DNA of 64,000 nt from positions 3,650-67,649 of IMG/VR virus record IMGVR_UViG_3300033066_001787; one strand, 5' to 3'. Under the pieces are notes generated by a model. It was given only the letters and a program-made list of their open reading frames with translations. It was not told where the DNA came from and made no database searches. Source of the DNA: a virus. Lineage: Duplodnaviria > Caudoviricetes. How positions within the stretch are numbered: position 1 is the first letter of the stretch; the number at the start of each line of letters is the position of its first letter. Both the position numbers and the translations under genes were made by a program. Positions 3,569-58,483 of the stretch are shown one piece after another.

Positions 3569-3966
3569 TGACTACTGAGACAGAAGAAGAGTCTCCTCTG
3601 ACAAGATTGACAAAGGAGCAAGTGATTCAAGCACATTGTAAGATCGGAGCGTTGGTCTATCATTCGATCAGAGATTACTCAGAACCTAACGATGGATTCT
3701 GCTCTGAGTGCGACAAAGTTCTTGCAGAACACAATTGGAATTTCAGGAATTGTGGAGACCTGATCGGGTACATTCGCAGAGCAGTATTGAACCAAATGAA
3801 ACTCGACGGAATCAAGATCAGTCCACATTTCTCTACTGAAACAGGAGCACTGAACGAAGATGCCAAAGATCCAGCAGAAGCTATCGTGGCAGCAGCACAA
3901 AGTAAAATGGAGCAACTGTACCCTGTGCGATCTGAGCTGTCACCGGAACAAAGTGGTGTTGGCTAG
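3565..3966 (+). CDS. hypothetical protein
   Basis: Tiled ORF with ATGA overlap and RBS. Confidence 0.55.
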   Translation: MMTTETEEESPLTRLTKEQVIQAHCKIGALVYHSIRDYSEPNDGFCSECDKVLAEHNWNFRNCGDLIGYIRRAVLNQMKLDGIKISPHFSTETGALNEDAKDPAEAIVAAAQSKMEQLYPVRSELSPEQSGVG

Positions 3967-4459
3967 AGGAAATCTTCCATGTGACATCTTGTTCGTGAGT
4001 GAGTCTCCTGGAACTACTGAGAACACTCGAGGACAGTCATCTATCGGACCTGCTGGTCAGTTGCTGGACCAGATGATCGCTGAGTCGATCTACGCCCACT
4101 CCACTGGCTGGAGAGTCGCGTTCACCCAGCTGGTGGCTTGCATGCCGAAGGGGACTCCAGGAACTAAGGCCGCACATGATATAACTAAGAAGCAGATCGA
4201 ATCATGCCGACCTCGTCTCGTGGAGTTCGTCCAGATCGCCAAGCCGCAGCTGATCATCAGGATGGGAAAGCTCGTGGAGAAGTTCATTCCCAACCAAGAG
4301 ATGTTCACCGGGCCGACGAAGCTGGAGCACCAGATACAGTTCGTCGACATGATTCATCCAGCGTCGATCTTGAGAGCAGACGTCTCTCAGAAGGCCCTGG
4401 CGTACCAGCGTTGCGTTGTGACGCTGTCTGACGCTGTAGAACAACTCGCACCATTCTAA
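3860..4459 (+). CDS. family-4-like uracil-DNA glycosylase (Fe-S), divergent active site
   Basis: CTLC, RGN..CDILFVSESPG..E..G...IGPAGQLL, LVACMP, ESCRPRL, MIHPA. Confidence 0.8.
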   Translation: MPKIQQKLSWQQHKVKWSNCTLCDLSCHRNKVVLARGNLPCDILFVSESPGTTENTRGQSSIGPAGQLLDQMIAESIYAHSTGWRVAFTQLVACMPKGTPGTKAAHDITKKQIESCRPRLVEFVQIAKPQLIIRMGKLVEKFIPNQEMFTGPTKLEHQIQFVDMIHPASILRADVSQKALAYQRCVVTLSDAVEQLAPF

Positions 4460-9137: not shown

Positions 9138-9350
9138 ATGCCAAGAGTTGGAGAATCTTCTGCGGTCATTTTAGCAAGGAAGCTCGGAGTCAAGAACAAG
9201 AAGCTACTGGCCAAGAAGATTCACAACATGAAACTCGCCTGGCAATATGCTCCTGCTGAGTTCTACTCTGAACCAAACTACAACAACAGCGGGATGACTC
9301 CCAAGCAATACTATGATACTCACGCCAAATTGTTAAAGGACTGGAAATAG
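9138..9350 (+). CDS. small basic hypothetical protein
   Basis: ORF whose stop overlaps the polA start. Confidence 0.6.
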   Translation: MPRVGESSAVILARKLGVKNKKLLAKKIHNMKLAWQYAPAEFYSEPNYNNSGMTPKQYYDTHAKLLKDWK

Positions 9351-11353
9351 TGCAGAGAATCTCTTGTGATACTGAGACAACAGGAAGCGACTTTCAGCAC
9401 AGTTCCAAACCATACTTCATCACAATCGCTGAAGAAGATGGCACACAGTACTTCTGGGAAGCAGATGTCGATCCGGTCACTAGAGAGCCTGATTGGGATC
9501 GAGAAGACCTTGCCGATGTTGAAAAACGGCTGCGAGAGGCCGATGAGGTAGTCTTTCAGAATCCCAACTTCGACGTGCGAGCGTTGATCACCATCATCCC
9601 GAGTCTCAAGGATTGGGACTGGTCTAAGACTCGTTGTACGCTTCTGGCCGACCACCTCATCTGCTCATCTAGACGACATGATCTCACGACTCAGGCGCTG
9701 GTCTACCTTGGAGTGGACATCCAGCCGTTTGAGGATCGCGTGGAGAAGGCTACACAAGACGCTCGTCGGTTCTGCAGATCTAAGCTCAAGGATTGGTTGA
9801 TCGCGAAGAAGGGAAATCCTGACATGCCGAGTCTCACTGAGGAGGCTTGGAAGGCAGACATGTGGCTTCTCAGAGCAGTCGCAAAGAACGAGAACTACGC
9901 TGAGGACCATCCATGGTGGACTCTGCTGGCCGACTACGCGAACACTGACTCCGCGGTCACTCTTCCGATCTATCTTGAGCAGATGAAGCTTCTCGAGAGC
10001 CGAGGTCTGTGGAAGATCTATGTCGAGCGACTCAAGACTCTCAAGCACAGATACTCGTTGGAGACTGTTGGACTGCCGGTCAACGAGGCTCGCATGAACG
10101 AGCTGAAGAAGAAATACACTGAGGAGTCAAAAGCCGCCGGAGAGATCTGCAACAATATCGCAGAATCTTACAATGGCTACCAGTTGATCCTGCCGAAGAA
10201 CGGGCTGAACAAGAACCTGACGACGTTCATGTTCGATGAGATGAAGCTTCCTGTCGTCAAGACTACAGACAAAGGAGCTCCTAGCTTTGACAAGTTCGCA
10301 TTAGACACCTACATGTCGACGCTTCCTGAGAGAGGAAAAGAGCTCACGTTCATCAAGGCGTTGAAGGGTAAGCGCAGTCGAGACACTGCGCTGGGATTCA
10401 TGGAGAGCTACCGACGCTACTGGCTGAAGCTGAAGGGCTCGTGGAGAGTGTTGTATCCGTCTCTGAACGCGACTGGGACGAGGACTCTGCGATGGAGCAG
10501 CAAAGGTCCAAATGAGCAGCAGATCAGCAAGAAAGAGGACTTCAACCTGCGCTACATGTTCGGGCCGTTGCCTGGACGCGAGTGGTGGAGTCTCGACTAC
10601 CAGAACATCGAGCTGAGGATACCTGCCTACGAATCTAACGAGCGGGTGATGATCGATCTTTTCGAGAAGCCAGATGAGCCTCCGTACTTCGGCAGCAACC
10701 ATCTGTTCAGTGCGTCGGTAGTGTACCCAGAGGTGTTCTGGCCGATCGCTGACCAGAAAGGTCTGTTCAAGAAGAAGTACGCGAGCACTTACTACGGCTG
10801 GATCAAGGGATTCAACTTCGCTTTGCAGTACGGCGCGATCGAGAAGTCTGGAACTGCCGACAGAGCGGCGAGACGAAAAGGAGCGCAGGCCGCAGTGCAG
10901 AAGCGCCTGAAGGAGGCGTCTCGTCTCAACCAGCATTACATCGACATGGCGAATCGGCTCGGCTATGTGGAGACGATACCAGACAGTGAGATCTGCCCAG
11001 AGCGAGGGTATCCTCTGTACTGTGAGAAGAACAAGTACGGAAAGGTGCTGGAGACTGTGCCGCTCAACTATCATGTGCAGGGCACCGCGTGCTGGGTCAT
11101 GATGAGAGCCATGGACAAAGTTCAAGATTATCTCGATCAGGTCAACGCGGAGTGTCCTGGGCACGCCATGGTGCTCCAGGTTCATGACGAGCTGATCTTC
11201 GATTTTCCTCAGAGAGCTAACATGGGGAATCTTCCTAAGATCAGAAAGATAAAGAGGATCATGGAGGAGATGGGGACGTTCATCAATGTTCCATTGACAG
11301 TTGGGGTGGAGTATCATCCTGACAATTGGTCTGAAGGTGTGGCTATTCATTGA
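9350..11353 (+). CDS. polA: family A DNA polymerase with 3'-5' exonuclease
   Basis: Exo I CDTETTG, Exo II NPNFD; motif A SLDYQNIELR, motif B KGFNFALQYG, motif C QVHDEL; GTG start. Confidence 0.95.
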   Translation: MQRISCDTETTGSDFQHSSKPYFITIAEEDGTQYFWEADVDPVTREPDWDREDLADVEKRLREADEVVFQNPNFDVRALITIIPSLKDWDWSKTRCTLLADHLICSSRRHDLTTQALVYLGVDIQPFEDRVEKATQDARRFCRSKLKDWLIAKKGNPDMPSLTEEAWKADMWLLRAVAKNENYAEDHPWWTLLADYANTDSAVTLPIYLEQMKLLESRGLWKIYVERLKTLKHRYSLETVGLPVNEARMNELKKKYTEESKAAGEICNNIAESYNGYQLILPKNGLNKNLTTFMFDEMKLPVVKTTDKGAPSFDKFALDTYMSTLPERGKELTFIKALKGKRSRDTALGFMESYRRYWLKLKGSWRVLYPSLNATGTRTLRWSSKGPNEQQISKKEDFNLRYMFGPLPGREWWSLDYQNIELRIPAYESNERVMIDLFEKPDEPPYFGSNHLFSASVVYPEVFWPIADQKGLFKKKYASTYYGWIKGFNFALQYGAIEKSGTADRAARRKGAQAAVQKRLKEASRLNQHYIDMANRLGYVETIPDSEICPERGYPLYCEKNKYGKVLETVPLNYHVQGTACWVMMRAMDKVQDYLDQVNAECPGHAMVLQVHDELIFDFPQRANMGNLPKIRKIKRIMEEMGTFINVPLTVGVEYHPDNWSEGVAIH

Positions 11354-11365
11354 GAGGAGAGTCAG

Positions 11366-12214
11366 ATGACAGAGTTTGCGGCGAGAGTGGAGAAGGACAG
11401 CATCAGCAACGCAGGCAGGCGGTTGATATCGATGGTGGTGACTTATCCGAGGATCATTCACTCTGAAGTGATGACACATCGAGCGTTCGCGAGGAACGCG
11501 AGCTCGTCGAGGGCGATCCCTTTCTCGAAGATGGTCGACCAGGTGATCACGTCGCCGTTCGTCCCGATCAAGTGGGGAGCGGAGCAGAGAGGGATGCAGA
11601 CTGGAGACTCATTGTCAGAGATGGCCGAGATCAAGTGTGAGACGGCCTGGCTGAGGGCGAGAGATCACGCGGTGTGGATGGCCAAGGAGATGCATTCTCA
11701 GGGGCTGCACAAGTCGATCTGCAATCGAGTCCTCGAGCCGTACTCCTGGATCACTGTCGTCATCACGGCGACTGAGTGGTGCAACTTCTTCAGGTTGAGG
11801 TGTCATCCTGACGCAGAGATCCACCTGCAGAAGATCGCCGGAATGATGAGAGACGCGATCAAGAAGAGCTCTCCTGAGTTCGTCCCTTTTGGAGAGTGGC
11901 ATCTGCCGTTCATCGACCAGGCTGATCTGGATACTCCAGGGATCACCGAGGATGATCTCTCTGCCATCTCGACCGCCAGGTCAGCGAGAGTGTCATATCT
12001 GACCCACGATGGTCTCAGAGATCATTCTAAGGACCAAGAGCTGTTCCATAAGCTCGTCACCGGCAGCGGCTTCGGGCACTATTCTCCGCACGAGCACGTG
12101 GCGACTCCTCTGGAGAATCCATACGAGGCTTCTGGGCCATTCAGAGGATGGAGACAGTTCAGAAAGAACTTCGTGTTGGAGAACGCCGAGACGCCGATCA
12201 AGTACTCTCCGTGA
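11366..12214 (+). CDS. thyX: flavin-dependent thymidylate synthase (phage-type ThyX)
   Basis: SEVMTHRAFARNASSSRAIP, NRVLEPY, FFRLR.H..A..H, HYSPHEH. Confidence 0.88.
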   Translation: MTEFAARVEKDSISNAGRRLISMVVTYPRIIHSEVMTHRAFARNASSSRAIPFSKMVDQVITSPFVPIKWGAEQRGMQTGDSLSEMAEIKCETAWLRARDHAVWMAKEMHSQGLHKSICNRVLEPYSWITVVITATEWCNFFRLRCHPDAEIHLQKIAGMMRDAIKKSSPEFVPFGEWHLPFIDQADLDTPGITEDDLSAISTARSARVSYLTHDGLRDHSKDQELFHKLVTGSGFGHYSPHEHVATPLENPYEASGPFRGWRQFRKNFVLENAETPIKYSP

Positions 12215-12223
12215 TCGTCAGAC

Positions 12224-12262
12224 AAAAAGACCTCGCAGTCTTCTCAGGCCGCGAGGTTCTTT
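12224..12262. terminator. bidirectional intrinsic terminator between convergent genes
   Basis: AAAAAGACCTCGC...GCGAGGTTCTTT inverted repeat. Confidence 0.75.
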
Positions 12263-12287
12263 GATTCATCGAAGATCTTCGCCGAGG

Positions 12288-12743
12288 TCACTCGAGGTTG
12301 TTCTTCGCTCCACTCTTCGTCAAGTAGAAAGCTGCTCCCTTGACACCCTCGACAGTTCCTTGTCCGACGAATCCACCGGTCTGCAGTTTTCCCTTGGACC
12401 ATACGGCGCAGTACGCGTCGAACTCGCTCAGCTTCGCGGCTGCGGCGATGGACGCGACGTTGACGCCGCTGAGAGGAGAGGTGGCTCCAAGCTTACGGAG
12501 TCCGGCGAGCGCCATATTGCATCGCTCTGTAGGGGTCTTGCTCGTGTCGGTCTTGCGCTCGACTGCTCCGTTCGTGGCGGCTTTCTTAGCAGGCTTTGTT
12601 TTGGCGGCGACTTTCTTCGCTGGCTTGACGGTCTTCTTCACAGCTTTCTTGGCCGATGCCACAGCCTTGACTGCAGCTTTCTTCACGACTTTCTTGACGG
12701 TGGCGGTTGGCTCGGTGGCGACGGCGGTCTCGAGATCAGACAT
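12288..12743 (-). CDS. histone H1-like Lys/Ala-rich DNA-binding protein with C-terminal winged-helix-like domain
   Basis: KKAAVKAVASAKKAVKKTVKPAKK repeats; GGAG RBS; own promoter and terminator. Confidence 0.7.
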   Translation of the reverse strand: MSDLETAVATEPTATVKKVVKKAAVKAVASAKKAVKKTVKPAKKVAAKTKPAKKAATNGAVERKTDTSKTPTERCNMALAGLRKLGATSPLSGVNVASIAAAAKLSEFDAYCAVWSKGKLQTGGFVGQGTVEGVKGAAFYLTKSGAKNNLE

Positions 12744-12969
12744 GATTCTAGCTCCATTTGCTTCTTGTCAGAGGTACCTGCCTCATCAGCGTCGGCGAGT
12801 AAGTGCCAGACGGACGATCTTGACGATCGTTTCGGCGTTGTCTCTGTGCAGATTCTACATGTCTCAGAGATCTTGTAAACAGAGAATTCACATATTTTTG
12901 TAAAATTCTTGAAGAAATATCCTCGTCAGCCTCATGATAAGATCGATAGAGGAGCTTCTCTCTAGAGAG

Positions 12970-13037: not shown

Positions 13038-14159
13038 ATGCATCTGACATATAGGAACGCGAACGAGGCGTTCATCGAGTTGGTCGAGCGATTCGCGATA
13101 GCGGATGACATCATCAGGTCTGGAAAAGCATGGACGCCTTTCTCCAAGAAACCTTCCCGCGTTGGAGAGGTGATCCAGATCGACGAGCCAGTCATCATCA
13201 CGTTTGAGAAACCCCGAGAGCGAGTCCTGTTCAACCAAGAACGAGACTGCAATCCATTCTTTCACGTGTTCGAGACTCTTTGGATGCTTGCTGGTCGAAA
13301 CGATATCGCATCATTGGAGTATTACTCGTCTGGGTACAAGGCTCAGGTGGATGACGGAGATGGAGTTGCCAACGGAGCATACGGGTATCGGTGGAGAGAA
13401 TCACATGCGTTTTTTATCAATAACTCTGCAGAATGGGATGAAAGATACATTGATCAACTCAAGATCATCATCGATCATTTGAAGAAAGTTCCAAATTCTC
13501 GTCGTGCAGTTCTCCAAATGTGGAACGTTCAAGATGATCTGCGTAAGATTGGCCCAGAGAACCAGTCGAAAGATGTCTGCTGTAACACTGCTGCGTACTT
13601 CTCTCTGAGGAAAACACAAGAGGATATTCCGGGCGTATTGTCACAACAACCCTTCAACATAACATACCTTGACATGACGGTCACCAACCGTTCCAATGAT
13701 CTGATCTGGGGATTGCTAGGAAGTGATCAAGTCAACTTGTCATTTCTTCAGGAGTACATCGCCAACTGCCTGGGAGTCCAAGTTGGTAAGTACAACCAGA
13801 TGAGTAACAATCTTCACGTCTACACTGAGAGGTTCAAGCCAGAGCAATGGCTGAGTTGGGTTCCTGATGGAGCTCAAGTGTACGAGGACAATCTGAGGTA
13901 TTATCCTCAGCTAGTGCAGAATCAAGAGACGTTCGACAAAGAAGTCATTGGGTTCTGCAATAACATCGAAGGACCGTGGAGAGAACCATTTCTTCAAGAT
14001 GTTGCTCGGCCGATGTGTATGGCGTTCGCTGCACACAAGAGTCGACATTATGACGTCGCGATCAACGTTCTCATGAACGAAGTCGCCGCCCATGACTGGC
14101 GCATCGCCGGAAAAGACTGGTTGGCTAAGCGACGACAAGCATGGGAGGCGAAGCAATGA
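13038..14159 (+). CDS. thymidylate-synthase-fold pyrimidine hydroxymethylase, predicted dCMP-specific
   Basis: GAYGYRW, DQL, SRRAVLQMW, KDVCCNT (catalytic Cys), NRSNDLIWG..GSD, SNNLHVY; AGGAG RBS. Confidence 0.85.
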   Translation: MHLTYRNANEAFIELVERFAIADDIIRSGKAWTPFSKKPSRVGEVIQIDEPVIITFEKPRERVLFNQERDCNPFFHVFETLWMLAGRNDIASLEYYSSGYKAQVDDGDGVANGAYGYRWRESHAFFINNSAEWDERYIDQLKIIIDHLKKVPNSRRAVLQMWNVQDDLRKIGPENQSKDVCCNTAAYFSLRKTQEDIPGVLSQQPFNITYLDMTVTNRSNDLIWGLLGSDQVNLSFLQEYIANCLGVQVGKYNQMSNNLHVYTERFKPEQWLSWVPDGAQVYEDNLRYYPQLVQNQETFDKEVIGFCNNIEGPWREPFLQDVARPMCMAFAAHKSRHYDVAINVLMNEVAAHDWRIAGKDWLAKRRQAWEAKQ

Positions 14160-14512
14160 CCTTCTGCTGTCCTCGCTGCGACAAGGTCTATGAAGATGAT
14201 TGCCAAGTGGACGACTGCATGTGTGGTTATCCAATTTCAAGAATGACACTACGAGAGGAGATCCAGATGAGCCAGTATCTAATCCAAGCAGACGCGACGG
14301 CCAAGGCGAGAATCCAATGTATCCAATTAGTGACTAAAGCAGCAGTGAGTCTTGCATCACCGTCCACCACGCCGGCGATCGTCGACAACCTGCTCGACAA
14401 CCTCAAGAGGGAGATCGAGAACCTTCAGTTCAACAATCGAAAGCTGTATGAGATGAAGATAGACAAGGAGAACGTTGAGGCAGCTGCACGGAAAGGATTT
14501 GAAAGTAAGTGA
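14156..14512 (+). CDS. hypothetical protein with N-terminal zinc ribbon
   Basis: CPRC...CMCG; ATGA overlap. Confidence 0.5.
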   Translation: MTFCCPRCDKVYEDDCQVDDCMCGYPISRMTLREEIQMSQYLIQADATAKARIQCIQLVTKAAVSLASPSTTPAIVDNLLDNLKREIENLQFNNRKLYEMKIDKENVEAAARKGFESK

Positions 14513-14545
14513 CAATTGCGGGTCTTACATAACAAGGAACATTTG

Positions 14546-14770
14546 ATGAAAAAACAAACTAAATCTTGTAATTGTATTGAGGACTGCAACAAAGAGCTCG
14601 CAAAACAAGGATTGAAACTTGATACAGATTTTGAGTTCAATTTTACAACAGGTCAAGCAAATCTTGCTATCAGTATCAAGACTAAAAAGTTGCCAACAAA
14701 CACGAGTAGAAAGAAACCTTTAGTCTTAGCCTGTTCCTATTGTCCCTTTTGCGGAAAGAAGCAACGATGA
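14546..14770 (+). CDS. small Cys-containing hypothetical protein
   Basis: CNC...YCPFCG; AAGGA RBS. Confidence 0.6.
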   Translation: MKKQTKSCNCIEDCNKELAKQGLKLDTDFEFNFTTGQANLAISIKTKKLPTNTSRKKPLVLACSYCPFCGKKQR

Positions 14771-15174
14771 AGACTTGGGAAGAAGACTTGATGGACCTGC
14801 ACGCTAAGTTCGGCGTGGGAGCTATTGTGGAGAAGATGCCACCTGACGTGCTGAAGGCGTTCTTGGAGTTCAGGAAAGACTTCATAGCGGAAGAGTGCAC
14901 TGAGCTGCGCGATGCCACCACTGCAGACGGAGTTGTCGACGCGTTGATCGACCTATGCGTGGTCGCGGTAGGGACGCTGGAGGCGTTCAACGTGGACGTG
15001 GAGGAAGCTTGGAGGCGAGTCCATGAGAAGAACATGCAGAAGCTGGCTGGAGAGAACTCTGGCCGCAAGAACGCGTTTGGATTCCCTGATCTTGTGAAGC
15101 CTCAAGGATGGACTCCGCCAGATCACAGAGACAACGTTGGACTCCTCTCATTGATATTTGACGAAAGTAAATAA
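14767..15174 (+). CDS. MazG/PRA-PH-like all-alpha NTP pyrophosphohydrolase
   Basis: AEECTEL, VVDALIDL, AWRRVHEKNMQKL, LVKP.GW.PP. Confidence 0.8.
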   Translation: MKTWEEDLMDLHAKFGVGAIVEKMPPDVLKAFLEFRKDFIAEECTELRDATTADGVVDALIDLCVVAVGTLEAFNVDVEEAWRRVHEKNMQKLAGENSGRKNAFGFPDLVKPQGWTPPDHRDNVGLLSLIFDESK

Positions 15175-15560
15175 TGAAGCACTCAGAGTACGCTGATCAT
15201 GTGAAGAAGTTCACTGACGAGATGATCGACACGACGTCGAAGAAGAACCCAGATTACTCAGCCGGCACTGAAGACGCGATGGGGAACTACTACGAAGTCT
15301 CCAACGCGACAGGAGTCACTCCAGTGCAGGCCTGGATGGTGCTGTTGATGAAGCACTTCACCGCCATCATGAGATTCACGAAGACAGGGATGGTGTCGTC
15401 AGAGGCGATCCACGGGCGGTTCATCGACCTCGCCAACTACGCGATGCTTGGAGATGCGTTGGTGAAAGACATGATAGAGAAAGGACTGACGAATGCCAAA
15501 GATACTGTTGGTCGGGGAGAGGATGAACTACACTCCGCCGCAGGCGAGAAAGTATCCTGA
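15174..15560 (+). CDS. DUF1599-like nucleotide-modification-associated protein
   Basis: KKNPDYS, W..L.MKH..AI, SE.I.GR..DLANY. Confidence 0.7.
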   Translation: MKHSEYADHVKKFTDEMIDTTSKKNPDYSAGTEDAMGNYYEVSNATGVTPVQAWMVLLMKHFTAIMRFTKTGMVSSEAIHGRFIDLANYAMLGDALVKDMIEKGLTNAKDTVGRGEDELHSAAGEKVS

Positions 15561-15990
15561 CTATTCATCAGATGATTACTGGAGGATCATGCTGAGGCTT
15601 CAGGCATTCAGAGACAATAGATCAAGGACGAAGCTGAGGAGGATAGGGATAGATCTCAGCTGCATCGAGGTGTTCTCGACGATCAACATCTTGCCGCCTG
15701 CTGGATCGAAAGTTCCATGGAGTCCTTCAGACGCGACGACGGTGATGTCGAGCTGGAGACCTAGACTCAAGGAGTTCGACGTGACGGTCTTGTGTGGAAG
15801 GAGAGCGGCCGAGGCGTTCTCCAGGAGGCTGTTTGGTAGAATGGAGGACTCTTGCGGAAGATTGAAGATCATCGACGGTCTGCGAGTGATGATGATCCCA
15901 CATCCGTCAGGACTGAATCTGTGGTGGAACGACGACTTACAAGTTCGAGAGCTCAAAGAGAGGGTAGAGGAATGCCTAGAGTTGGTTTAG
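15493..15990 (+). CDS. divergent UDG-superfamily protein
   Basis: ILLVGE, INILP, VLCGRRA..AF, IPHPSGLN.WWN. Confidence 0.65.
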   Translation: MPKILLVGERMNYTPPQARKYPDYSSDDYWRIMLRLQAFRDNRSRTKLRRIGIDLSCIEVFSTINILPPAGSKVPWSPSDATTVMSSWRPRLKEFDVTVLCGRRAAEAFSRRLFGRMEDSCGRLKIIDGLRVMMIPHPSGLNLWWNDDLQVRELKERVEECLELV

Positions 15991-16820
15991 ACACGTCGCC
16001 GAAGAAGAGGGCCAGGCATCTTGTCGCAGACGAGCCAGAGTGCAAGCACGGTCCTCGAGAGCAGCAGGCTCTACGACGCCACGATGAGGGAGACTACGAC
16101 AAGACTGATCTCGATAGCAAGAGCCACGGTAAGATGGTCCACCGTGACTATGCAGCTCACTACTTCAGGTGGGGATGGGCGGCGAACTTCTGCAGCAAGA
16201 AGCGAGTGCTGGACTACGGCTGTGGAAAGGAGCAGCCGCTGGCGCGAGTATTGACAGACTTCAACTACCCGTCGCTATATCTTGGACTGGACTTGAACAA
16301 GCTAGACGAGTGGAGCGCTCCATGGAAGAAGGTCAAGGCAGGAGTCGATCTGTGCGCCGCTGGAACTCCTCCGATGATCATCAAGGACTACGGCAAGTTC
16401 GACGTCGGAGTGTCGTTCGAGGTGATCGAGCATGTCCCATTTGACAAGCAGGAAGTCTACCTGAAGAACCTGTCGAAGTGCGTCTCTGACGATGGCATGA
16501 TCTTGTTGTCGACGCCGGTCTATTCCCCAGGGAAAGGCATGGCGAAGAACCACATGTCAGAGCTGATGGTCGATGAGATCTTCTCGTTGGCTGAGATCTG
16601 TGGTCTGGAGGTGGTGAATCGCTATGGCACGTTCGCTGACTACACCTCGTGGAAGAACGCCTTGAAGAATTCTTTATCCTCAGAGGCGTGGGATGAATTG
16701 TGGCCGATTCTTCAGAACGTTGGAGAGTTCTACTCGACGACTGTACAGTCTAACTGGTGGGCTCCGGCGTTTCCTGACATCTCGAGAAACAACGCGTGGA
16801 TCTTCAAGAAGAAAGATTGA
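15972..16820 (+). CDS. class I SAM-dependent methyltransferase
   Basis: HRDYAAHYFRW, VLDYGCG, SFEVIEHV, LLSTP. Confidence 0.85.
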   Translation: MPRVGLDTSPKKRARHLVADEPECKHGPREQQALRRHDEGDYDKTDLDSKSHGKMVHRDYAAHYFRWGWAANFCSKKRVLDYGCGKEQPLARVLTDFNYPSLYLGLDLNKLDEWSAPWKKVKAGVDLCAAGTPPMIIKDYGKFDVGVSFEVIEHVPFDKQEVYLKNLSKCVSDDGMILLSTPVYSPGKGMAKNHMSELMVDEIFSLAEICGLEVVNRYGTFADYTSWKNALKNSLSSEAWDELWPILQNVGEFYSTTVQSNWWAPAFPDISRNNAWIFKKKD

Positions 16821-17056: not shown

Positions 17057-17259
17057 TCGAGTATAACCGGGGTGAACCTGAAAAACCTGGAGTCTACGCT
17101 TGTCGAATCCCTGACGATAACTTCTCTGGAACAACAGACTGGTGTAAAGATGTGTTTCTGGTGTGGATTGATGACAGGTGGGGATTTCCTGGTTCAGACC
17201 AAAACTACAGAGGAGAGGTCGTTGGTTGGATTGGTCCATTACAAAGGTCACATAAGTAA
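17026..17259 (+). CDS. hypothetical protein
   Basis: GGAG RBS; P..PGVY...W.GP Trp-rich motif; stop overlaps primase start. Confidence 0.55.
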   Translation: MPKVGESKELVEYNRGEPEKPGVYACRIPDDNFSGTTDWCKDVFLVWIDDRWGFPGSDQNYRGEVVGWIGPLQRSHK

Positions 17260-19472
17260 TGCCTAAGGTCTCAAAAGATTTGCCTGATAGTCTTCGGGTA
17301 TACAACTTTCACGGATTGGATTTAAACTACAGAGAAGGAGAGAAGAATGCCACTTGCGATTGCATGTTCTGTGGACGGGAAAACAAGTTTAACATTCTGG
17401 TGGACACGGGTCAGTACCGATGTGTGGTATGCGGAGTCTCCGGCAATCAGTATGTTTTCATTCGTGAGCTGATGAGGTTGTCCGATGAAGCGACTACAGA
17501 TTATGTCTCTCTCGCTGAAGATCGCGGTCTTGCTCTGCCTGATTCAATTATTGTTTGGGGATTAGTCAAGTCTATATTGACTGATGAGTGGATGATCCCT
17601 GGATACGGGATGGACGGCAAGCTTCACCAGCTCTATCGTTATTTCGGAGTCAAGGGAAAGAGACGGATGATCCCGACGCCGACGTTGGGTCATCAGTTGT
17701 TTGGTCTCAATCTCTTCGACAAGGACAAGTCGACGATCGATCTCTTGGAAGGCCCATGGGACGGTCTTGCGTTCTACGAGATGCTCGCCAACGTCAAGTA
17801 TGAGGATGGATACTCACTCACTGCTAATGCGCAATCATCGTTGCTCTCTGACCGGAATGTTCTAGCGATCCCTGGTGCTGGTACGTTCTTTGAGACGTGG
17901 GTGCCTTTGTTCGCTGATAAGGTGGTGAATCTCTGGTGCCAGAATGATCATGTCAAGACAGCGGAGAACGGTCAGATCATCCCGTCAGCCAGCTACGAGG
18001 GGATGAAGCGGATAGCGAGGATGCTGCTGTCGTCTGACCATCCTCCGCTAGAGATCAACTATCTCTCTTGGGGCGAGAACGGGTACACTGAGGAGCTTCC
18101 TCATGGATTTGACATTCGAGACGCTCTAGGAGCTAACGGGAGAGCTCTAAGATCGCGTCTAGAACCATTCGTTGAGATATTTGACCAGATCTCCACGATT
18201 CCAGCCGAATGGTCAGAGAAATCAACCTCGATGACCAGGGATGGTAAGAAGGGTACGAAGAGGAAGCCGGAGGAGCTAGAGCTAGTTCCATGCTCAGACT
18301 GGAAGACTCTGATCAACGCCTGGAAGAAGGCTTTGAAATGGACTGACGGCCTGGACGTTGCTCTGTCCACAATGCTGTCAGCGATCGCCTCTACTGAGGC
18401 TGTTGGAGATCAACTGTGGATCGAGATCATCTCTCCAGCAAGCTCTGGAAAGTCGGTGTTGTGTGAAGCAGTCTCTGTCAACAAGAAGTATGTTTTGGCC
18501 AAGAGCACGATCAGAGGATTTCACTCTGGGTTCGGCAACGGAGACGAGGACAACTCTCTGCTGACGCTGGCCGCCAACAAGACGCTGGTGACCAAGGACG
18601 GCGACACGTTGCTGCAGTCTCCAAATCTCGGTCAGATCTTGGCCGAGGCGCGAGACGTCTATGACACGGTGTCTAGGACGCACTATCGCAACAAGCAGAG
18701 CAAGAACTACGAGGGGGTCCGCATGACGTGGATTCTCTGTGGAACAGCGTCGTTGCTGTCTCTGGACACGTCTGAGCTTGGTGAGCGCTTTCTCAAGTGC
18801 ATCATCATGGACGGCATCGATGATGATCTGGAAGACGAGGTGCTCATCCGTAGTGCTCACAGTGAGGTGGGAAAGATGAAGATGCAGTCAGGGATCGACG
18901 CGAGCACCAAGGAATCAGAGGAGATGATTCAGGCCAAAGCTCTCACAGGTGGTTACATCAACTACTTGAGAGAGAACTTCTTCGACTTGCTGGCTGGAGT
19001 CGAGATCAGTGATGATGTCTTGTGGAAGTGTACTCGTTATGGCAAGTTCATCGCGTTCATGCGAGCGAGACCCTCGACGAAGCAGGCGGAGCACTCAGAG
19101 CGTGAGTTCGCCGCTCGTCTCGTCAAGCAGATCATACGTCTGATGCAATCCACGGTGATCGTGCTGAACCAGCAGTGCGCTACTGACGAGGTGATGCGAA
19201 GAGTGAAGAAGGTGACTCTGAACACGTCTAGAGGGATCGTGCTGTCGATCGTGACGTACATGTACTATCTCGACGAGGACACTGGAGCGACCAACTCTAT
19301 GATCGCGGTGATGGTCCACAAGACTGCGGATGAGATCAGGCACATGATGAAGTTTCTGCGACATATCGGAGTCGTGGAGGCGTTCACGACCACAGATGAC
19401 AAGACGCGTCCAACGGCGCAGTACAGACTGACTCACAAGCTTCGAAAACTTTATAAGGAGGTGATGGGATGA
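17259..19472 (+). CDS. primase-helicase: Zn finger + TOPRIM + MCM-like AAA+ + winged helix
   Basis: CMFC...CVVC; LLEGPWDG; SPASSGKS; GERF Arg finger; R.VKQIIRL sensor-2-like; C-terminal HTH. Confidence 0.75.
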   Translation: MPKVSKDLPDSLRVYNFHGLDLNYREGEKNATCDCMFCGRENKFNILVDTGQYRCVVCGVSGNQYVFIRELMRLSDEATTDYVSLAEDRGLALPDSIIVWGLVKSILTDEWMIPGYGMDGKLHQLYRYFGVKGKRRMIPTPTLGHQLFGLNLFDKDKSTIDLLEGPWDGLAFYEMLANVKYEDGYSLTANAQSSLLSDRNVLAIPGAGTFFETWVPLFADKVVNLWCQNDHVKTAENGQIIPSASYEGMKRIARMLLSSDHPPLEINYLSWGENGYTEELPHGFDIRDALGANGRALRSRLEPFVEIFDQISTIPAEWSEKSTSMTRDGKKGTKRKPEELELVPCSDWKTLINAWKKALKWTDGLDVALSTMLSAIASTEAVGDQLWIEIISPASSGKSVLCEAVSVNKKYVLAKSTIRGFHSGFGNGDEDNSLLTLAANKTLVTKDGDTLLQSPNLGQILAEARDVYDTVSRTHYRNKQSKNYEGVRMTWILCGTASLLSLDTSELGERFLKCIIMDGIDDDLEDEVLIRSAHSEVGKMKMQSGIDASTKESEEMIQAKALTGGYINYLRENFFDLLAGVEISDDVLWKCTRYGKFIAFMRARPSTKQAEHSEREFAARLVKQIIRLMQSTVIVLNQQCATDEVMRRVKKVTLNTSRGIVLSIVTYMYYLDEDTGATNSMIAVMVHKTADEIRHMMKFLRHIGVVEAFTTTDDKTRPTAQYRLTHKLRKLYKEVMG

Positions 19473-20353
19473 GACAGCTATACATCAAAGACTGGAGCGA
19501 CAGTGCAGGGTTGACAAGCTTCAACTTTCCAGACGGTCAACCTCATGTCAAATACGGCAGAGCAGCAGAGCTTTCTCCTGGCGAGGGTATCCTCATTCGC
19601 TGTCGTATCGCCTCCTCGGACGATCTTCTCAAGCTTGGTATGCTTTGTGAAACTCTGAGGAACAAGTCTATCGGATGCTTCGTGACGATCACGTACTTGA
19701 TGGGAAGTCGCATGGATCGGCGAAACAGCAAGAGTGAGCCTTATTCTCTGATGGTGATCGCAAATCTTCTCAACTCGATGGGGATCGGCGGAGTATCAGT
19801 GTTCGTGCCGCACTCGTCATCCACGAGAGATCTGTTGGACAACTACGACGAGACTTATTGGGAGTACATTGAGAAAGGATTCTACCAGCGAGCGATCACT
19901 GCGATATTTGACAAGGAGTTTCCTGGCAAGATCACAGAAGACTACAGCATCGTGTATCCTGACTACGGGGCAAGCAAGAGATTCGGAGACATGCTGAAGG
20001 GATTTCAAGCAGATGAGGTCACGCTTGTCAAGACTCGGGAGCAGACGACAGGCAAGATCACGGGCATGAAGTTGCTTGACGGAGAGGTCCAAGAGACCTG
20101 CATCATCGTCGACGATCTCTGCGACGGTGGCAGAACGTTCGAAGAAGCTTCAAAGCTGCTGAGGATTCTGGGAGCTAAGAGAGTTCATCTCGTGGTCGCT
20201 CACGGCATCTTCTCGAAGGGGGTCCATCTACAAGGGATCGACAGTATCCACACGACAGACTCTTACAAGACCAAAGAAGACTACATGGAAGATTCTTTGT
20301 ATTCCGTGGTCGGCAACAATTTCCACGTCCACTCACTCTTTGAAGGCAACTGA
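19469..20353 (+). CDS. prs: ribose-phosphate pyrophosphokinase-like protein (candidate ADPR-PP synthetase, Adps)
   Basis: FPDGQPHV, YLMGSRMDR, VYPDYGA, IIVDDLCDGGRTF. Confidence 0.88.
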   Translation: MRQLYIKDWSDSAGLTSFNFPDGQPHVKYGRAAELSPGEGILIRCRIASSDDLLKLGMLCETLRNKSIGCFVTITYLMGSRMDRRNSKSEPYSLMVIANLLNSMGIGGVSVFVPHSSSTRDLLDNYDETYWEYIEKGFYQRAITAIFDKEFPGKITEDYSIVYPDYGASKRFGDMLKGFQADEVTLVKTREQTTGKITGMKLLDGEVQETCIIVDDLCDGGRTFEEASKLLRILGAKRVHLVVAHGIFSKGVHLQGIDSIHTTDSYKTKEDYMEDSLYSVVGNNFHVHSLFEGN

Positions 20354-20356
20354 TCA

Positions 20357-21832
20357 ATGTTGTTTCCTATCTCACCGCTGTTGTTGCTCGACGGTTACAA
20401 GACCGATCATCGTCGTCAGTATCCTGAGGGAACAGAGCAAGTCACCTCAAATCTCACTCCTCGCAAGTCCAGGATCGATGGATTTGATGAGGTCGTGTTC
20501 TTCGGCAACCAGTACTTCTTGCAAAAATACCTCATCGATGACATGCGAGAAGAATTCTTCGACCAAGATGAGAGCTACGTTGTAGATAAATACCAGGCAG
20601 TGATGGATCAGTACCTTGGTATGAATTCAGTCTCAACGAAGCATATCGCAGAGCTTCATCAGCTGGGGTATCTTCCTCTTGAGATCCGAGCATTGCCAGA
20701 AGGGACTCGCTGTCCAATCGGAGTGCCGATGCTGACGATCGAGAACACTGATCCAAGATTCTTCTGGCTCACGAACCAGCTTGAGACGCTGTTGTCGTGT
20801 TGTCTGTGGAGTCCCTGTACGGCTGCTACTTTGGCCTACCGATACCGAAAGACGTTTGACAGGTACAACCTACAGACAGGGATTCCATTCGAGCTTGGTA
20901 AGTACCAAGGACATGATTTCTCGTTCCGTGGAATGAGTTCTGTCGAATCGGCGTTGACGGCTGGAGCAGGTCACTTGACCTCGTTCGCAGGTACGGACAC
21001 GATACCGACATTGTTGTTCATCGAGGAGTACTACAGCTCAGGTCTGCGCCACAGTGATTTGATCGGTTGTTCAGTCCCTGCTACGGAACACTCGGTGATG
21101 TGCATGGGAGGGATGGAGAACGAGATCGAGACGTATCGACGGTTGATCACGAAGGTCTATCCAACAGGCATCGTGTCGATCGTGTCAGACACCTGGGATT
21201 TCTGGTCGTTGATGACGATCGGTCTCGACGCTCTGTACGACGACATCGTGAAGCGGCAAGGCAAGGTGGTGTTCCGTCCAGACAGCGGTGATCCGGTCAA
21301 GATCATCTGTGGTGATCCAGAAGCAGCTCCAGGCAGCGCAGCTTGGAAGGGAGCGTTTCAGCTCTTGTGGGACAAGTTTGGAGGAACAGAGCACCAAGGG
21401 TTCAAGCATCTCCACCCCAAGGTCGGGCTCATCTACGGTGACTCGATCACGCCGGAGCGTCAAGAGGCGATCCTTGGAATTCTCTCTCAGAGAGGTTTTG
21501 CGCCAAACGTCGTTCTTGGTATCGGCTCTTACACTTACCAGTACAAGAGCAGAGACACATTCGGGTTCGCTGTCAAGGCGACTCACGGTGTCGTCGACGG
21601 AGAAGACAGGATGATCTTCAAGTCACCAAAGACTGATCCAACAGGGGAGAAGAAATCTCTCAAGGGCAGGGTTGGAGTGTTCGTGGAGAACAACAAGATC
21701 GTCGTGAGAGACCAGCTGAGCCTGAAAGAATCTAGAACAGGACTACTCAAGCAAAAATTTTGTAATGGCAACATGACTCACCGTGAGAGTCTAGCCGATG
21801 TTCGATACCGACTACATGGGGAGAGCTTCTGA
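20357..21832 (+). CDS. nadV: nicotinamide phosphoribosyltransferase-like protein (candidate Namat)
   Basis: DGYKTDH, HDFSFRG, PATEHSVM, SIVSDTWD, RPDSGDP, IYGDSIT. Confidence 0.92.
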   Translation: MLFPISPLLLLDGYKTDHRRQYPEGTEQVTSNLTPRKSRIDGFDEVVFFGNQYFLQKYLIDDMREEFFDQDESYVVDKYQAVMDQYLGMNSVSTKHIAELHQLGYLPLEIRALPEGTRCPIGVPMLTIENTDPRFFWLTNQLETLLSCCLWSPCTAATLAYRYRKTFDRYNLQTGIPFELGKYQGHDFSFRGMSSVESALTAGAGHLTSFAGTDTIPTLLFIEEYYSSGLRHSDLIGCSVPATEHSVMCMGGMENEIETYRRLITKVYPTGIVSIVSDTWDFWSLMTIGLDALYDDIVKRQGKVVFRPDSGDPVKIICGDPEAAPGSAAWKGAFQLLWDKFGGTEHQGFKHLHPKVGLIYGDSITPERQEAILGILSQRGFAPNVVLGIGSYTYQYKSRDTFGFAVKATHGVVDGEDRMIFKSPKTDPTGEKKSLKGRVGVFVENNKIVVRDQLSLKESRTGLLKQKFCNGNMTHRESLADVRYRLHGESF

Positions 21833-54754: not shown

Positions 54755-55138
54755 ATGTCTCAGGAACCAATTCAAGTTGTTAATCTCCCAAACAATCCTA
54801 AGTACACAGAACAGATTCATAATTTTCTAAGACAAGCCCCAGGAAACAACCCTCAACTAATTGCCCAATTGAGATTCAAATACGTCATCACTATGAAAGT
54901 CTTGTCCGAAAGCGAGTTTCAAAAAATAGTAGCGTCTGTTCCAAGACCTACCAAAGGACTGGGGGACGTTGTCGCTTACGTTGCCAAGGTGACAGGAATC
55001 AGTGCAATCGTCAAGTACATGTCGAAGAAGACAGGAGTGCCTTGCGGATGTGGAGCGAGACAGGAAGCTCTCAACAGAGCTGTTCCTCTGCCAAAAGTGA
55101 TCACTGGATGGATACCCCCTACGATTGAGGAGCGATAA
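54755..55138 (+). CDS. GLGD...CGC..RQE.LN motif protein
   Basis: Motif in C-terminal half. Confidence 0.6.
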   Translation: MSQEPIQVVNLPNNPKYTEQIHNFLRQAPGNNPQLIAQLRFKYVITMKVLSESEFQKIVASVPRPTKGLGDVVAYVAKVTGISAIVKYMSKKTGVPCGCGARQEALNRAVPLPKVITGWIPPTIEER

Positions 55139-55976
55139 ATTGCGTTGGAGCTATGGAGTAATGACTGTGCCGTCTCGCAGAGAGACTACCCTTCCCTTCA
55201 CCTTGGAGACCTTAGAGAAAGCAGGATTTGACCAACCGCGGCTGTTCATCGATGGAGCGAGAGATGACAGCGAGTACAGGCACTTGGGACTACGGACAAC
55301 GTGCCACTTCCCGACGATCAGGACAGCAGCGAACTGGACGTTGGCTCTCTACGAACTCTACACGAGAGACCCTGCTGCGAATCGATTTGCCGTGTTCCAG
55401 GACGACATCGTCATCTGCAAGAACACCAAGCAGTACCTAGACACGTTCAGCTATGGCACCTACGCGCAGAAGTTCTACTGGAACCTACACACGTTTCCTG
55501 TCAATGAGGAAGAGCAGGACGGTGAGAAAGGGTTTCGACCGAAAGACCACGTTGGGTTCTACCCTTCCAATCAACTAGGCAAGGGAGCACTTGCCCTGGT
55601 ATTTGATCGAGAGGCTGTCTGCGCCTTGTTCAGCACTGACTACCTCACCAGACGATTCCAGGATGAGCGGAGAGGGCATCAGTCGATCGATGGTGGTGTA
55701 GTGACAGCGATGACCAACGTAGGATACAAGGAGCACGTTCACTACCCCAGCCTGGTGCAGCACATCGGGAAGATCTCAACCATGGGCCACGAGAAGAACG
55801 GCGTGACCATCTATCCACCGTCTGCTTCTTTCCCAGGAGAATCCTTTGACGCAATGGAATTAGTATGCTCAGTGAAAAAATTACCAGAGCACTCCAAAGT
55901 GTTGGTGTCACAGATCTACGGGTTGCCCAGTGGCTGGGACGGCCATGTCGATGCCCCGAGCGAAGGGAAAAGCTAG
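55125..55976 (+). CDS. GT-A fold glycosyltransferase (GT2/GT25-like)
   Basis: YGVMTVPSR, VFQDD (DxD-like), PSLVQH.G. Confidence 0.8.
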   Translation: MRSDKLRWSYGVMTVPSRRETTLPFTLETLEKAGFDQPRLFIDGARDDSEYRHLGLRTTCHFPTIRTAANWTLALYELYTRDPAANRFAVFQDDIVICKNTKQYLDTFSYGTYAQKFYWNLHTFPVNEEEQDGEKGFRPKDHVGFYPSNQLGKGALALVFDREAVCALFSTDYLTRRFQDERRGHQSIDGGVVTAMTNVGYKEHVHYPSLVQHIGKISTMGHEKNGVTIYPPSASFPGESFDAMELVCSVKKLPEHSKVLVSQIYGLPSGWDGHVDAPSEGKS

Positions 55977-56065
55977 ATCAATTGGAGGTCTGGGCAAAGC
56001 GTATAATTAAAGGACGCATAGAGGGTGCGTTGAAATATCTCAATGAACTCATGGAGCAAGATTGA
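55865..56065 (+). CDS. small CxC..R.E.L motif protein
   Basis: CRCPERREKL; stop overlaps the next ATG. Confidence 0.5.
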   Translation: MLSEKITRALQSVGVTDLRVAQWLGRPCRCPERREKLDQLEVWAKRIIKGRIEGALKYLNELMEQD

Positions 56066-57066
56066 TGAACGTTGGAGCATTCGTTTATTGTACGACACAG
56101 GGGTTGGGCATCTTGGCCAAATCCTTCTTTGACAACGGAGTAGTCAACAAACCCTGTATTCACCTCCACCACTGCAGGAAGAACAACACTCACTGGTATC
56201 CAGAAGGGACTCCCCGAATTGACAAACGTCTCGGGTACAGGATCGCTCACGAGTGGCTGAAGACGATCGACGTGCTGCTGGTGTTTGAGACTCCTTTTGA
56301 CTGGACTCTTATTCCTACAGCGAAGAGACTCGGCATACCAGTCGTCTTCATGCCGATGTACGAGTGCACTCCTCAAGTGATGCCTCATGAGCCTGACCGT
56401 TGGATCTGTCCTTCCGTGTTGGACTATGACTACTTCAAGAGCAAGCCAGACTGCAGGTACATCCCAGTGCCGGTGAGCGTGCCTTGGAAGCTACGAACTG
56501 AGGCAAAGGTATTCGTCCATAACGCAGGCAACGGAGGGCTGCTAGGACGCAATGGAACGAGAGAGCTCGTCAATTCCCTCAAGTACATCAAGAGCGATGC
56601 GCAGATCATCATCAGGGGCCAAGAGTTCAACGAGGAGTTTGAGAATGAGATTGCCAAAGTCTCATCCAATGTCGACGTTCACTACTCATCAGGCACGATC
56701 CCCTATGACAAGCTTTGGGAGGACGGAGATGTCTTTGTGTTCCCCGAGAAGTTCAACGGGCTGTCTCTTCCTCTTCAGGAAGCACGAGCGGCAGGAATGG
56801 CTGTTGCTGCTACTGATCGTCGTCCAAACAATCTCTACTTGCCACTGAGACACCTCATCCAGGTCAGCGGATACAACCGAGCGAGAGTGGGAGTGAGCTA
56901 CCTTGAGTTTGATGAAGCAATCGTCAACCCTCTTCACATCGCTAACAGGATCGATGAGATGTATGGTCAAGACATCTCGGATGTCTCCTACTCAGGCCAG
57001 GAGTTTGCCAAAACCTACTCTTGGGAAAACTTGAAACCTCAGTACATGGAGGCTTTCTCACTATGA
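56065..57066 (+). CDS. GT-B glycosyltransferase (GT4-like)
   Basis: VHNAG.GG...RNG, DVFVFPEKFNGLSLPLQEA.AAG.AV..TD. Confidence 0.85.
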   Translation: MNVGAFVYCTTQGLGILAKSFFDNGVVNKPCIHLHHCRKNNTHWYPEGTPRIDKRLGYRIAHEWLKTIDVLLVFETPFDWTLIPTAKRLGIPVVFMPMYECTPQVMPHEPDRWICPSVLDYDYFKSKPDCRYIPVPVSVPWKLRTEAKVFVHNAGNGGLLGRNGTRELVNSLKYIKSDAQIIIRGQEFNEEFENEIAKVSSNVDVHYSSGTIPYDKLWEDGDVFVFPEKFNGLSLPLQEARAAGMAVAATDRRPNNLYLPLRHLIQVSGYNRARVGVSYLEFDEAIVNPLHIANRIDEMYGQDISDVSYSGQEFAKTYSWENLKPQYMEAFSL

Positions 57067-57968: not shown

Positions 57969-58483
57969 AACCAATATCAGATCCAGCCTACTGGAGAGAT
58001 CGACTAGCCTGCTACAACGCAAGCAATCCTCACCACATCATCATGAAGATGGATATCGACGAGTGGGGCAAGATCGAGTCAGTACACAGACTATTACTTG
58101 CTCAGCTCCTCAAGCCAAATGACTCGATCCTTGACGCCGGATGTGGATATGGTCGGCTATTGAGGTTGATGCCTACGACATGGAGAGGAGAGTATCTCGG
58201 CGTCGATCTCTCTCCTGACTTCATCGAGCTGGCGAGGAAGGAACATCCTGACTGTGATTTCGTCGTTGGCCGTCTCGATGATCTATCAAGAATCGCCTAT
58301 GTTCCGAACCAAGACAACCCGTTGAAGAAGTTTGACTGGTGCGTATGCGTCTCGATCCGAGAGATGGTGATCAAGAATGAAGGAGAATCATCGTGGACTA
58401 GCAAATTAGCGCAGATGAGGAAGATCAGCAAACGTGTGTTGATCCTTGAGTACAACGTCAACGACAAGGGAGAGATTCTGTGA
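57962..58483 (+). CDS. class I SAM-dependent methyltransferase
   Basis: ILDAGCGYGR, GVDLS, GRLDD. Confidence 0.85.
   Translation: MVEPISDPAYWRDRLACYNASNPHHIIMKMDIDEWGKIESVHRLLLAQLLKPNDSILDAGCGYGRLLRLMPTTWRGEYLGVDLSPDFIELARKEHPDCDFVVGRLDDLSRIAYVPNQDNPLKKFDWCVCVSIREMVIKNEGESSWTSKLAQMRKISKRVLILEYNVNDKGEIL

Follow-up and report, generated by a model that had tools for sequence, protein, structure and literature searches.

We examined a row of genes at positions 13038 to 16820 of a 64,000-nucleotide stretch of phage DNA (Duplodnaviria; Caudoviricetes). This stretch (hereinafter, the window) covers positions 3,650 to 67,649 of IMG/VR record IMGVR_UViG_3300033066_001787, i.e., most of a 67.6-kb record with an estimated completeness of 95%. 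The row encodes a thymidylate synthase (TS) homolog with the ThyA fold, a MazG-like nucleoside triphosphate (NTP) pyrophosphohydrolase, a DUF1599-like protein, a protein with the uracil-DNA glycosylase (UDG) fold, and a class I S-adenosylmethionine (SAM)-dependent methyltransferase. Judging from the sequences, it is probable (roughly 60%) that these genes constitute a pre-replicative cytosine-replacement pathway in which a methyl group is transferred to hydroxymethylated cytosine. The core of the row is very likely a T4-like 5-hydroxymethylcytosine (hmC) pathway built from non-T4 parts. Pathways of this kind are already known, and the core matches the MetaGPA domain network, in which TS, PF01503, and dCMP deaminase co-occur on experimentally cytosine-modified contigs (PMC8670742); the original prediction, which was made from the DNA letters alone and presented the five genes as a candidate undescribed operon, was thus anticipated with regard to the core. 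The methyltransferase is the new element of the module and may represent a new tailoring step for hmC.

The substrate assignment depends on the ThyA-fold enzyme (PF00303, E = 1.8e-19; phrog_5131, E = 1.2e-84), whose best solved relative is the CMP hydroxymethylase MilA. We aligned this protein and its relatives with E. coli thyA and T4 gene 42, both taken from annotated records. In E. coli ThyA numbering, the window residues Asp179, Cys182, Asp221, and Asp230 correspond to L143D, C146, D169, and N177D, respectively. Positions 143, 146, 169, and 177 therefore read D, C, D, and D, identical to T4 gp42, and the same positions in the Asn-type relatives read D, C, D, and N. Cys182 matches the catalytic Cys of both ThyA and gp42, and Asp230 lies opposite N177 in ThyA and D179 in gp42. 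Asp177 is associated with the use of dCMP as a substrate (PMC13326640; PMC8670742). An acidic residue at position 143 correlates with a hydroxymethyl product, whereas methyl-forming enzymes have a bulky hydrophobic residue there, and Asn169 is the mark of 5-hydroxy-dCMP synthases (PMC13326640); the window protein retains Asp221 (RSND motif) at the latter position. Read by these rules, the four residues lead to the prediction that the TS homolog is a dCMP hydroxymethylase, which agrees with the cytosine-directed type that had been proposed for it. An alternative is that the enzyme is a dCMP methylase of the Xp12 type and that the phage DNA contains 5-methylcytosine instead of hmC. According to literature cited in PMC8670742, N177D alone turns TS into a dCMP methylase. 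However, the residue at position 143 is the Asp that T4 gp42 and MilA also have, and this Asp is found throughout the clade, including the Asn-type members linked to the hydroxymethyluracil (hmU) kinase HMUDK (5-hmdU DNA kinase), which must produce hydroxymethyl-dUMP. We therefore regard a methylase of this type as improbable.

Asp177 is rare in this TS clade, about 95% of which keeps Asn at that position. Among the 120 closest homologs, position 177 is Asn in 112 and Asp in 8 (P0008, P0030, P0035, P0038, P0063, and P0112 among the Asp-type proteins). At least 571 IMG/VR loci encode the clade, and Asp occurs only in the window, L005, and L037. One metagenome scan added the Asp-type loci L087, L096, L107, L123, L124, L127, and L129, and a degenerate DNA pattern for the Asp motif retrieved 47 metagenome stretches, only 9 of which encode the TS clade (L118 and L005 represent one contig); the others are chance matches. 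In a quick maximum-likelihood tree (FastTree; P0001 to P0120), the proteins with Asp177 are scattered over five or more positions, several with well-supported Asn-type sisters, which hints that switching from uracil to cytosine may have recurred within the clade.

The partner genes differ along with residue 177. A homolog of HMUDK is present in 59 of the 78 Asn-type loci and in neither of the two Asp-type IMG/VR loci; a search of the 67.6-kb record for HMUDK (PF18723) was negative, in line with the reported lack of an hmU kinase. Conversely, when these 80 IMG/VR loci anchored on TS are compared, both ThyX and dCMP deaminase are confined to the Asp type, as are close orthologs of the MazG-like protein and of the DUF1599-like protein (also named nucleotide modification associated domain 1 [NMAD1]). 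In the Asp-type loci, ThyX, which is found in both Asp-type IMG/VR relatives, lies directly after the TS gene and is accompanied by a MazG-like gene (52 to 60% identical), and these loci carry, variously, a DUF1599-like gene (64 to 69% identical), a P-loop dNMP kinase, a dCMP deaminase, and a UDG-like gene. Of the 41 whole records that are Asp-type or carry the methyltransferase, 7 contain ThyX and 9 contain the UDG-like family; neither is present in any of the 48 Asn-type records. The MazG-like, DUF1599-like, and UDG-fold genes thus travel with the Asp-type TS homologs and not with the Asn-type majority. The nearest Asp-type relatives (L005, L037, L107, L123, L124, and L127) share TS, ThyX, and MazG and, partly, NMAD1, the deaminase, the kinase, or UDG, but they lack the methyltransferase. 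The idea that the five genes form one conserved operon therefore fails, and the methyltransferase is best seen as an add-on and not as a part of the core.

The ThyX-like protein (PF02511, E = 2.5e-10; phrog_85, E = 2.1e-61; TIGR02170, E = 2.6e-12, under its cutoff) is predicted to belong functionally to the gene set. The MazG-like protein (PF01503, E = 2.4e-9, 37.9 bits versus a cutoff of 21.3; phrog_671, E = 3e-21) has an EExxE...D..D metal-binding motif, of which E42, E43, E46, D58, and D62 are invariant among orthologs, and its orthologs at 52 to 60% identity are restricted to Asp-type loci. By analogy, this protein is predicted to hydrolyze dCTP and/or dUTP to the monophosphate. Its closest solved relative is DR2231 (E = 4e-6), a dUTP-specific enzyme (dUTPase); because of this, specificity for dCTP is conjectural, and the role of dCTP remover that had been suggested for the protein is unsupported as written. 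The DUF1599-like protein matches only the C-terminal third of PF07659 (E = 0.054, 14.3 bits versus a cutoff of 25; the L037 ortholog scores 17.9 bits) and, in addition, phrog_6802 (E = 3e-11). Orthologs with 56 to 69% identity are found in L037, L107, L127, L131, and L132 and in none of the 78 Asn-type loci. An hhalign comparison of the DUF1599-like protein with the MazG-like protein revealed no similarity (probability, 0.1%).

The UDG-fold protein scores 20 bits against PF03167 (cutoff, 24.3), and its assignment draws on fold and motifs. The AlphaFold model (mean predicted local distance difference test [pLDDT] score, 95.7) yielded Foldseek matches exclusively within the UDG superfamily (UdgX, family-4 UDG, MUG, and TDG; template-modeling [TM] scores of 0.5 to 0.65). 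The protein lacks the Fe-S cysteines and has the motifs GERxN, NLLPP, and PHPSGLNxxWN; motif B (PHPSGLN) is invariant, and motif A is the variant GERxN. Its representative homologs number 167, and the family profile retrieved nothing significant from the PDB sequences. The source gene call begins at Met11 (155 amino acids [aa]) and cuts off the conserved LLVGE motif; judged by sequence, the ATG at 15493 is the better start, because homologs align from residue 3 and conserve LLVGE. A canonical UDG-superfamily gene (PF03167, E = 5.9e-16) lies elsewhere in the window at 3860 to 4459 on the plus strand. The phage thus has two UDG-fold genes, of which the copy in the cluster is the divergent one, and because a canonical UDG is also encoded, the minimal protein probably has a different specificity. 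Its absence from hmU-type phages fits with an attack on uracil-derived bases.

The methyltransferase (PF13489, E = 8.6e-12, 45.5 bits versus a cutoff of 27) belongs to an almost entirely viral family with 54 near-length homologs, for which the Atlas contains unnamed viral clusters only. The family motifs are VHRDYAAH, GCG, FEVIEH, STP, NHxHE, and PDxSRNNAW, and the seven-strand model (pLDDT, 85.7) has the GCG loop and conserved D107 expected of class I SAM-dependent enzymes. After strand 4 the protein reads FEVIEH; DPPY/NPPY-type, PC, and ENV motifs are absent, and there is no match to PF00145 in the protein or elsewhere in the 67.6-kb record. The view taken from the letters, that the protein looks like a small-molecule enzyme and not like a DNA methyltransferase with PC/NPPY motifs, is thereby upheld. 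No solved relative was found by sequence, and Foldseek matched the model only to generic class I small-molecule or cap enzymes, including cap N7 methyltransferases (TM score, ~0.5).

A single-sequence scan of viral contigs gave no match to the family, and a profile scan led to the identification of 39 IMG/VR loci. A PF00303 gene accompanies the methyltransferase in 28 of the 39 records and in all 11 of those that are at least 90% complete; the distance between the two genes is <5 kb in 18 of the 28 and is typically ~1 kb. All 27 readable TS homologs in these records have Asp177, Asp143, and Asp169. These 27 proteins come from several subfamilies, their open frames ranging in length from 224 to 532 aa. 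L132 and L169 have nearly the gene set of the window in a different order (PolA, MazG, TS, deaminase, UDG-like, methyltransferase, DUF1599-like, and primase-helicase), and here the methyltransferase forms the C-terminal half of a single uninterrupted frame (L132:5798-7717, and likewise in L169) whose N-terminal half is a Dcm-type C5 DNA methylase. Such fusions to a PF00145 methylase (GNPPC and QRRKR motifs) occur in at least 20 of the 24 longer homologs, the fused proteins being 600 to 1000 aa long (P0328 to P0348), and in several further loci the two genes are adjacent and unfused. Every fusion-bearing or adjacent record with enough sequence also has an Asp-type TS homolog. A distant sister subfamily (20 to 22% identity; common motifs STP, NHxxE, GTF, and SNNxAW) is found in marine phages (L079:6030-6839, L080:6232-6885, L081:6030-6839, and L198 to L200), where it lies immediately upstream of HMUDK and an Asn-type TS. 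The sister subfamily may carry out a methylation step in thymidine hypermodification.

These data have to be weighed against the possibility that the methyltransferase acts independently of hmC, as a non-canonical anti-restriction DNA methyltransferase or as an RNA or small-molecule methyltransferase that resides in nucleotide-metabolism modules. Recurrent fusion or adjacency to PF00145 methylases is usual in phage multi-methylases, the closest Asp-type relatives do without the enzyme, and the fold matches are generic and include cap N7 methyltransferases. On the other side, the TS homologs of family-bearing records are uniformly of the Asp177/Asp143 type in the 27 readable cases; every near-complete record (11 of 11) has a TS homolog, usually 1 to 2 kb away; and the absence of a DPPY/NPPY-type motif after strand 4 and of PC/ENV motifs does not suit a DNA methyltransferase. 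We consider an independent enzyme unlikely and lean, by a narrow measure, toward a methyltransferase that depends functionally on the hmC core.

A tblastn search against deposited phages identified the methyltransferase family in two of them, namely, the cultured Stenotrophomonas phage AXL3 and the Pseudoxanthomonas phage PW916. The AXL3 row comprises gp27 (dCMP deaminase), gp28 ("thymidylate synthase"), gp29 (kinase), gp30 (NTP pyrophosphohydrolase), and gp31 (methyltransferase), and ThyX is gp50. AXL3 gp28 (L202, MT536174.2, 11331-12140) reads KDVPCT and RSSDVWLGVPYD, which makes it an Asp143/Asp177 protein. It thus carries the dCMP-hydroxymethylase signature, and its sequence indicates that the label "thymidylate synthase" is probably a misannotation. 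PW916 ORF60 is deposited as a deoxyuridylate hydroxymethyltransferase. Of 37 restriction enzymes tried on AXL3 DNA, 35 failed to cut it, and each of these recognizes a site containing G/C; only TasI and Tru1I cut. The modification was left unidentified (PMC7504290). Our literature search found no later paper identifying it and no relevant paper on methoxymethyl-cytosine or -uracil in DNA.

The same observations bear on the view that the cluster serves ordinary thymidylate supply or the synthesis of a bacimethrin- or mildiomycin-like hydroxymethyl-pyrimidine small molecule by a TS-like hydroxymethylase, a glycosidase, and an O-methyltransferase. Thymidylate supply is what the deposited annotations of AXL3 and PW916 imply, the AXL3 gene being named "thymidylate synthase," and a small molecule would be in keeping with MilA as the best solved relative and with the adjacent glycosylase-fold and small-molecule-type methyltransferase genes. 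Yet Asp177 is incompatible with the use of dUMP, and a separate ThyX is present; the genes lie between DNA polymerase and primase-helicase and, in relatives, beside dCMP deaminase and dNMP kinase; the UDG-like gene is found in only 9 of 41 records; and it is the AXL3 DNA itself that resists restriction at G/C sites. Either version is very improbable.

Glycosylation is the classical fate of hmC in T-even phages, and a cassette at 55125 to 59965 of the same genome (three glycosyltransferases, an aminotransferase, and a methyltransferase) could modify hmC. If glycosylation by this cassette were the main further step, the methyltransferase of the cluster would have a minor or different role. The families of the T4 alpha- and beta-glucosyltransferases had no match in the genome, and as the control genomes also had none, these searches lacked a positive control; the original statement that a T4-type glucosyltransferase is absent holds in terms of family matches and is limited by that lack. 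We judge glycosylation as the principal step to be a slim prospect.

Several points, in addition to this cassette, weigh against a cytosine-replacement pathway with methyl transfer. The residue rules applied to the TS homolog are correlations drawn from other subfamilies. The ThyX-like protein is divergent, with THR...S in place of the RHR signature motif, and the closest solved relative of the MazG-like protein is a dUTPase. Relatives have a dNMP kinase and a dCMP deaminase, but neither turned up in this genome; searches of the 67.6-kb record for dCMP deaminase and the thymidylate-kinase family were negative. As for the methyltransferase, its fold is uninformative as to substrate, it is absent from the closest Asp-type relatives, its Dcm-type fusions fit an independent anti-restriction DNA methylase equally well, its link to Asp-type TS is a count within family-bearing records, and the position of the sister subfamily beside Asn-type TS and HMUDK implies that the family is not strictly cytosine linked.

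In the pathway that we propose, the ThyA-fold enzyme would convert dCMP to 5-hydroxymethyl-dCMP, as its active-site residues suggest. On the model of T4 gp56, dCTP and dUTP would be converted to monophosphates by the MazG-like pyrophosphatase, possibly aided by the DUF1599-like protein, and this drain would both exclude dCTP from phage DNA and supply dCMP to the hydroxymethylase. The ThyX-like enzyme would provide dTMP, because the ThyA-fold enzyme would have been redirected to dCMP. The phage PolA would incorporate hydroxymethyl-dCTP, with the kinase step performed by the host or by an unrecognized protein. The SAM methyltransferase would then methylate hmC; in the simplest case the hydroxyl would be the acceptor, and 5-methoxymethylcytosine would result. 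This reaction could take place on either the nucleotide or the DNA; the nucleotide-metabolism neighbors point to the former, and the Dcm fusions point to the latter. The hydroxymethyl oxygen would be the simplest methyl acceptor, to which the link of the sister subfamily to hydroxymethyl-uracil systems also points; N4 or other positions are possible. O-methylated hmC is our simplest guess for the product, and O-methylation specifically is a tentative proposal; the product named in the original prediction, O-methylated or glycosyl-methyl hmC, is likewise a guess. The minimal UDG-fold protein may be a DNA glycosylase tolerable to a cytosine-modified, not a uracil-modified, phage; its task may be the repair of uracil or deaminated hmC, or an attack on unmodified DNA. 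In its broadest and more doubtful form, the proposal is that the methyltransferase family comprises hmC methyltransferases, so that the DNA of AXL3, of PW916, of this phage, and of dozens of uncultured ones would contain a base undescribed in nature, either 5-methoxymethylcytosine or a methyl-hmC isomer of it, that the enzyme is elsewhere fused to a Dcm-like base-flipping domain, and that the sister subfamily may act equivalently on hydroxymethyluracil-derived bases.

The layout of the row is given in Table 1. All five genes named in the original prediction were confirmed on the plus strand, and the description of them as co-oriented and mostly overlapping at stop and start proved accurate: the stop codon of TS overlaps the following start codon (14156) as ATGA, with GGGAGG upstream, a second ATGA overlap lies at 14767, a one-base overlap lies at 15174, and longer overlaps of 68 and 19 bases occur at 15493 and 15972, respectively. 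Two small Cys-rich open reading frames (ORFs), absent from the gene list of that prediction, sit between the TS and MazG genes. The first is translationally coupled to TS through the ATGA; it had no Pfam, PHROG, or NCBIfam match and was not found in related loci. A homolog of the second is present in L132 and L169.

Table 1. Genes of the row and of its immediate surroundings (positions in the window)
Gene product	Coordinates	Strand	Basis
Family A DNA polymerase (PolA)	9350..11353	+	
ThyX-like flavin-dependent thymidylate synthase	11366..12214	+	PF02511, phrog_85
ThyA-fold enzyme, predicted dCMP hydroxymethylase, 373 aa	13038..14159	+	PF00303, phrog_5131
Small protein with N-terminal CxxC...CxC zinc-ribbon-like motif and coiled coil	14156..14512	+	ORF list, sequence
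Small Cys-rich protein	14516..14770	+	phrog_7033 (unknown function), E = 4.7e-7
MazG-like all-alpha NTP pyrophosphohydrolase, PRA-PH type	14767..15174	+	PF01503, phrog_671
DUF1599/NMAD1-like protein	15174..15560	+	PF07659 (subthreshold), phrog_6802
Minimal UDG-fold protein, putative DNA glycosylase	15493..15990	+	PF03167 (subthreshold), AlphaFold model
Class I SAM-dependent methyltransferase (most likely extent)	15972..16820	+	PF13489
Primase-helicase	17259..19472	+	

Other features of the region were recorded in passing. The replication arm has a single minus-strand gene (12288 to 12743). Its product, 151 aa long and rich in Lys and Ala, contains AKKA repeats like those of histone H1, and sigma-70-like promoter matches lie just upstream of the gene (12879 to 12852 and 12771 to 12742). 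A plus-strand ORF at 12009 to 12878 was taken as spurious, being of low complexity, without a family match, and overlapping the minus-strand gene. A Hammerhead type II ribozyme match at 12772 to 12837 on the minus strand (Rfam, 28.9 bits versus a gathering threshold of 37; E = 0.013) is probably due to chance. Directly after the primase-helicase gene, at 19469 to 21832, a ribose-phosphate pyrophosphokinase-like gene adjoins a nicotinamide phosphoribosyltransferase gene; the two may serve together in NAD+ salvage or reconstitution.

A single active-site change, from Asn177 to Asp, thus coincides with a wholesale exchange of partner genes, in which HMUDK is lost and ThyX, MazG, the deaminase, and the UDG-like gene appear, and this switch divides phages that share one replication backbone into thymine modifiers and cytosine modifiers. 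The deposited labels "thymidylate synthase" and "methyltransferase" in such phages probably misdescribe the genes. The candidate tailoring of hmC is directly testable, since the cultured phage AXL3 has the same module and an unexplained complete resistance to restriction at G/C sites. If a new hmC derivative is indeed made, it would bear on how phages evade type IV restriction enzymes and glycosylases directed at hmC and on the choice of phages for therapy, and its pathway could supply enzymes for the chemistry of hmC.

Among known systems, the hmC pathway of T4 (gp42, the dCTPase/dUTPase gp56, the dNMP kinase gp1, and the cd deaminase) resembles the cluster in its Asp143/Asp177/Cys146 ThyA-fold enzyme, in the NTP pyrophosphatase beside TS, in the deaminase and kinase of the relatives of the window, and in its pre-replicative logic. 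In contrast to T4, the window TS (373 aa) belongs to another subfamily (phrog_5131), one that otherwise consists mostly of hmU enzymes, its pyrophosphatase is of the PRA-PH/MazG type, its dTMP would come from ThyX, and a SAM methyltransferase is added; a kinase, a deaminase, and a glucosyltransferase were not found in the window genome. The hmC carbamoyltransferase modules of MetaGPA share with the window an Asp177 TS, PF01503, dCMP deaminase (in the relatives), one enzyme that tailors the hydroxymethyl group, and a setting on phage contigs, but the tailoring enzyme is a carbamoyltransferase there and a predicted class I SAM methyltransferase here (PMC8670742). Thymidine hypermodification, with dUMP hydroxymethylase and HMUDK, uses the same TS clade (44 to 56% identity) and the same PolA and primase-helicase backbone; the window differs in having Asp177 for Asn and, instead of HMUDK, the ThyX, MazG, NMAD1, and UDG-like genes. 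The AXL3/PW916 cluster (gp27 to gp31 and gp50) has the same methyltransferase family (32.5% identity), an NTP pyrophosphohydrolase, a TS homolog (Asp-type in AXL3 gp28), and ThyX. Unlike the window, AXL3 has a TS of another subfamily (269 aa) as well as a kinase and a deaminase; the AXL3 region shown contains no UDG-like or DUF1599-like gene, and its published annotation is thymidylate synthesis. Finally, the 5-hydroxy-dCMP synthases of RB69 and DLP3 (PMC13326640) have in common with the window enzyme the ThyA fold, the N177D change, and a position 143 occupied by an acidic residue, and they differ from it by their D169N, where the window protein keeps Asp221.

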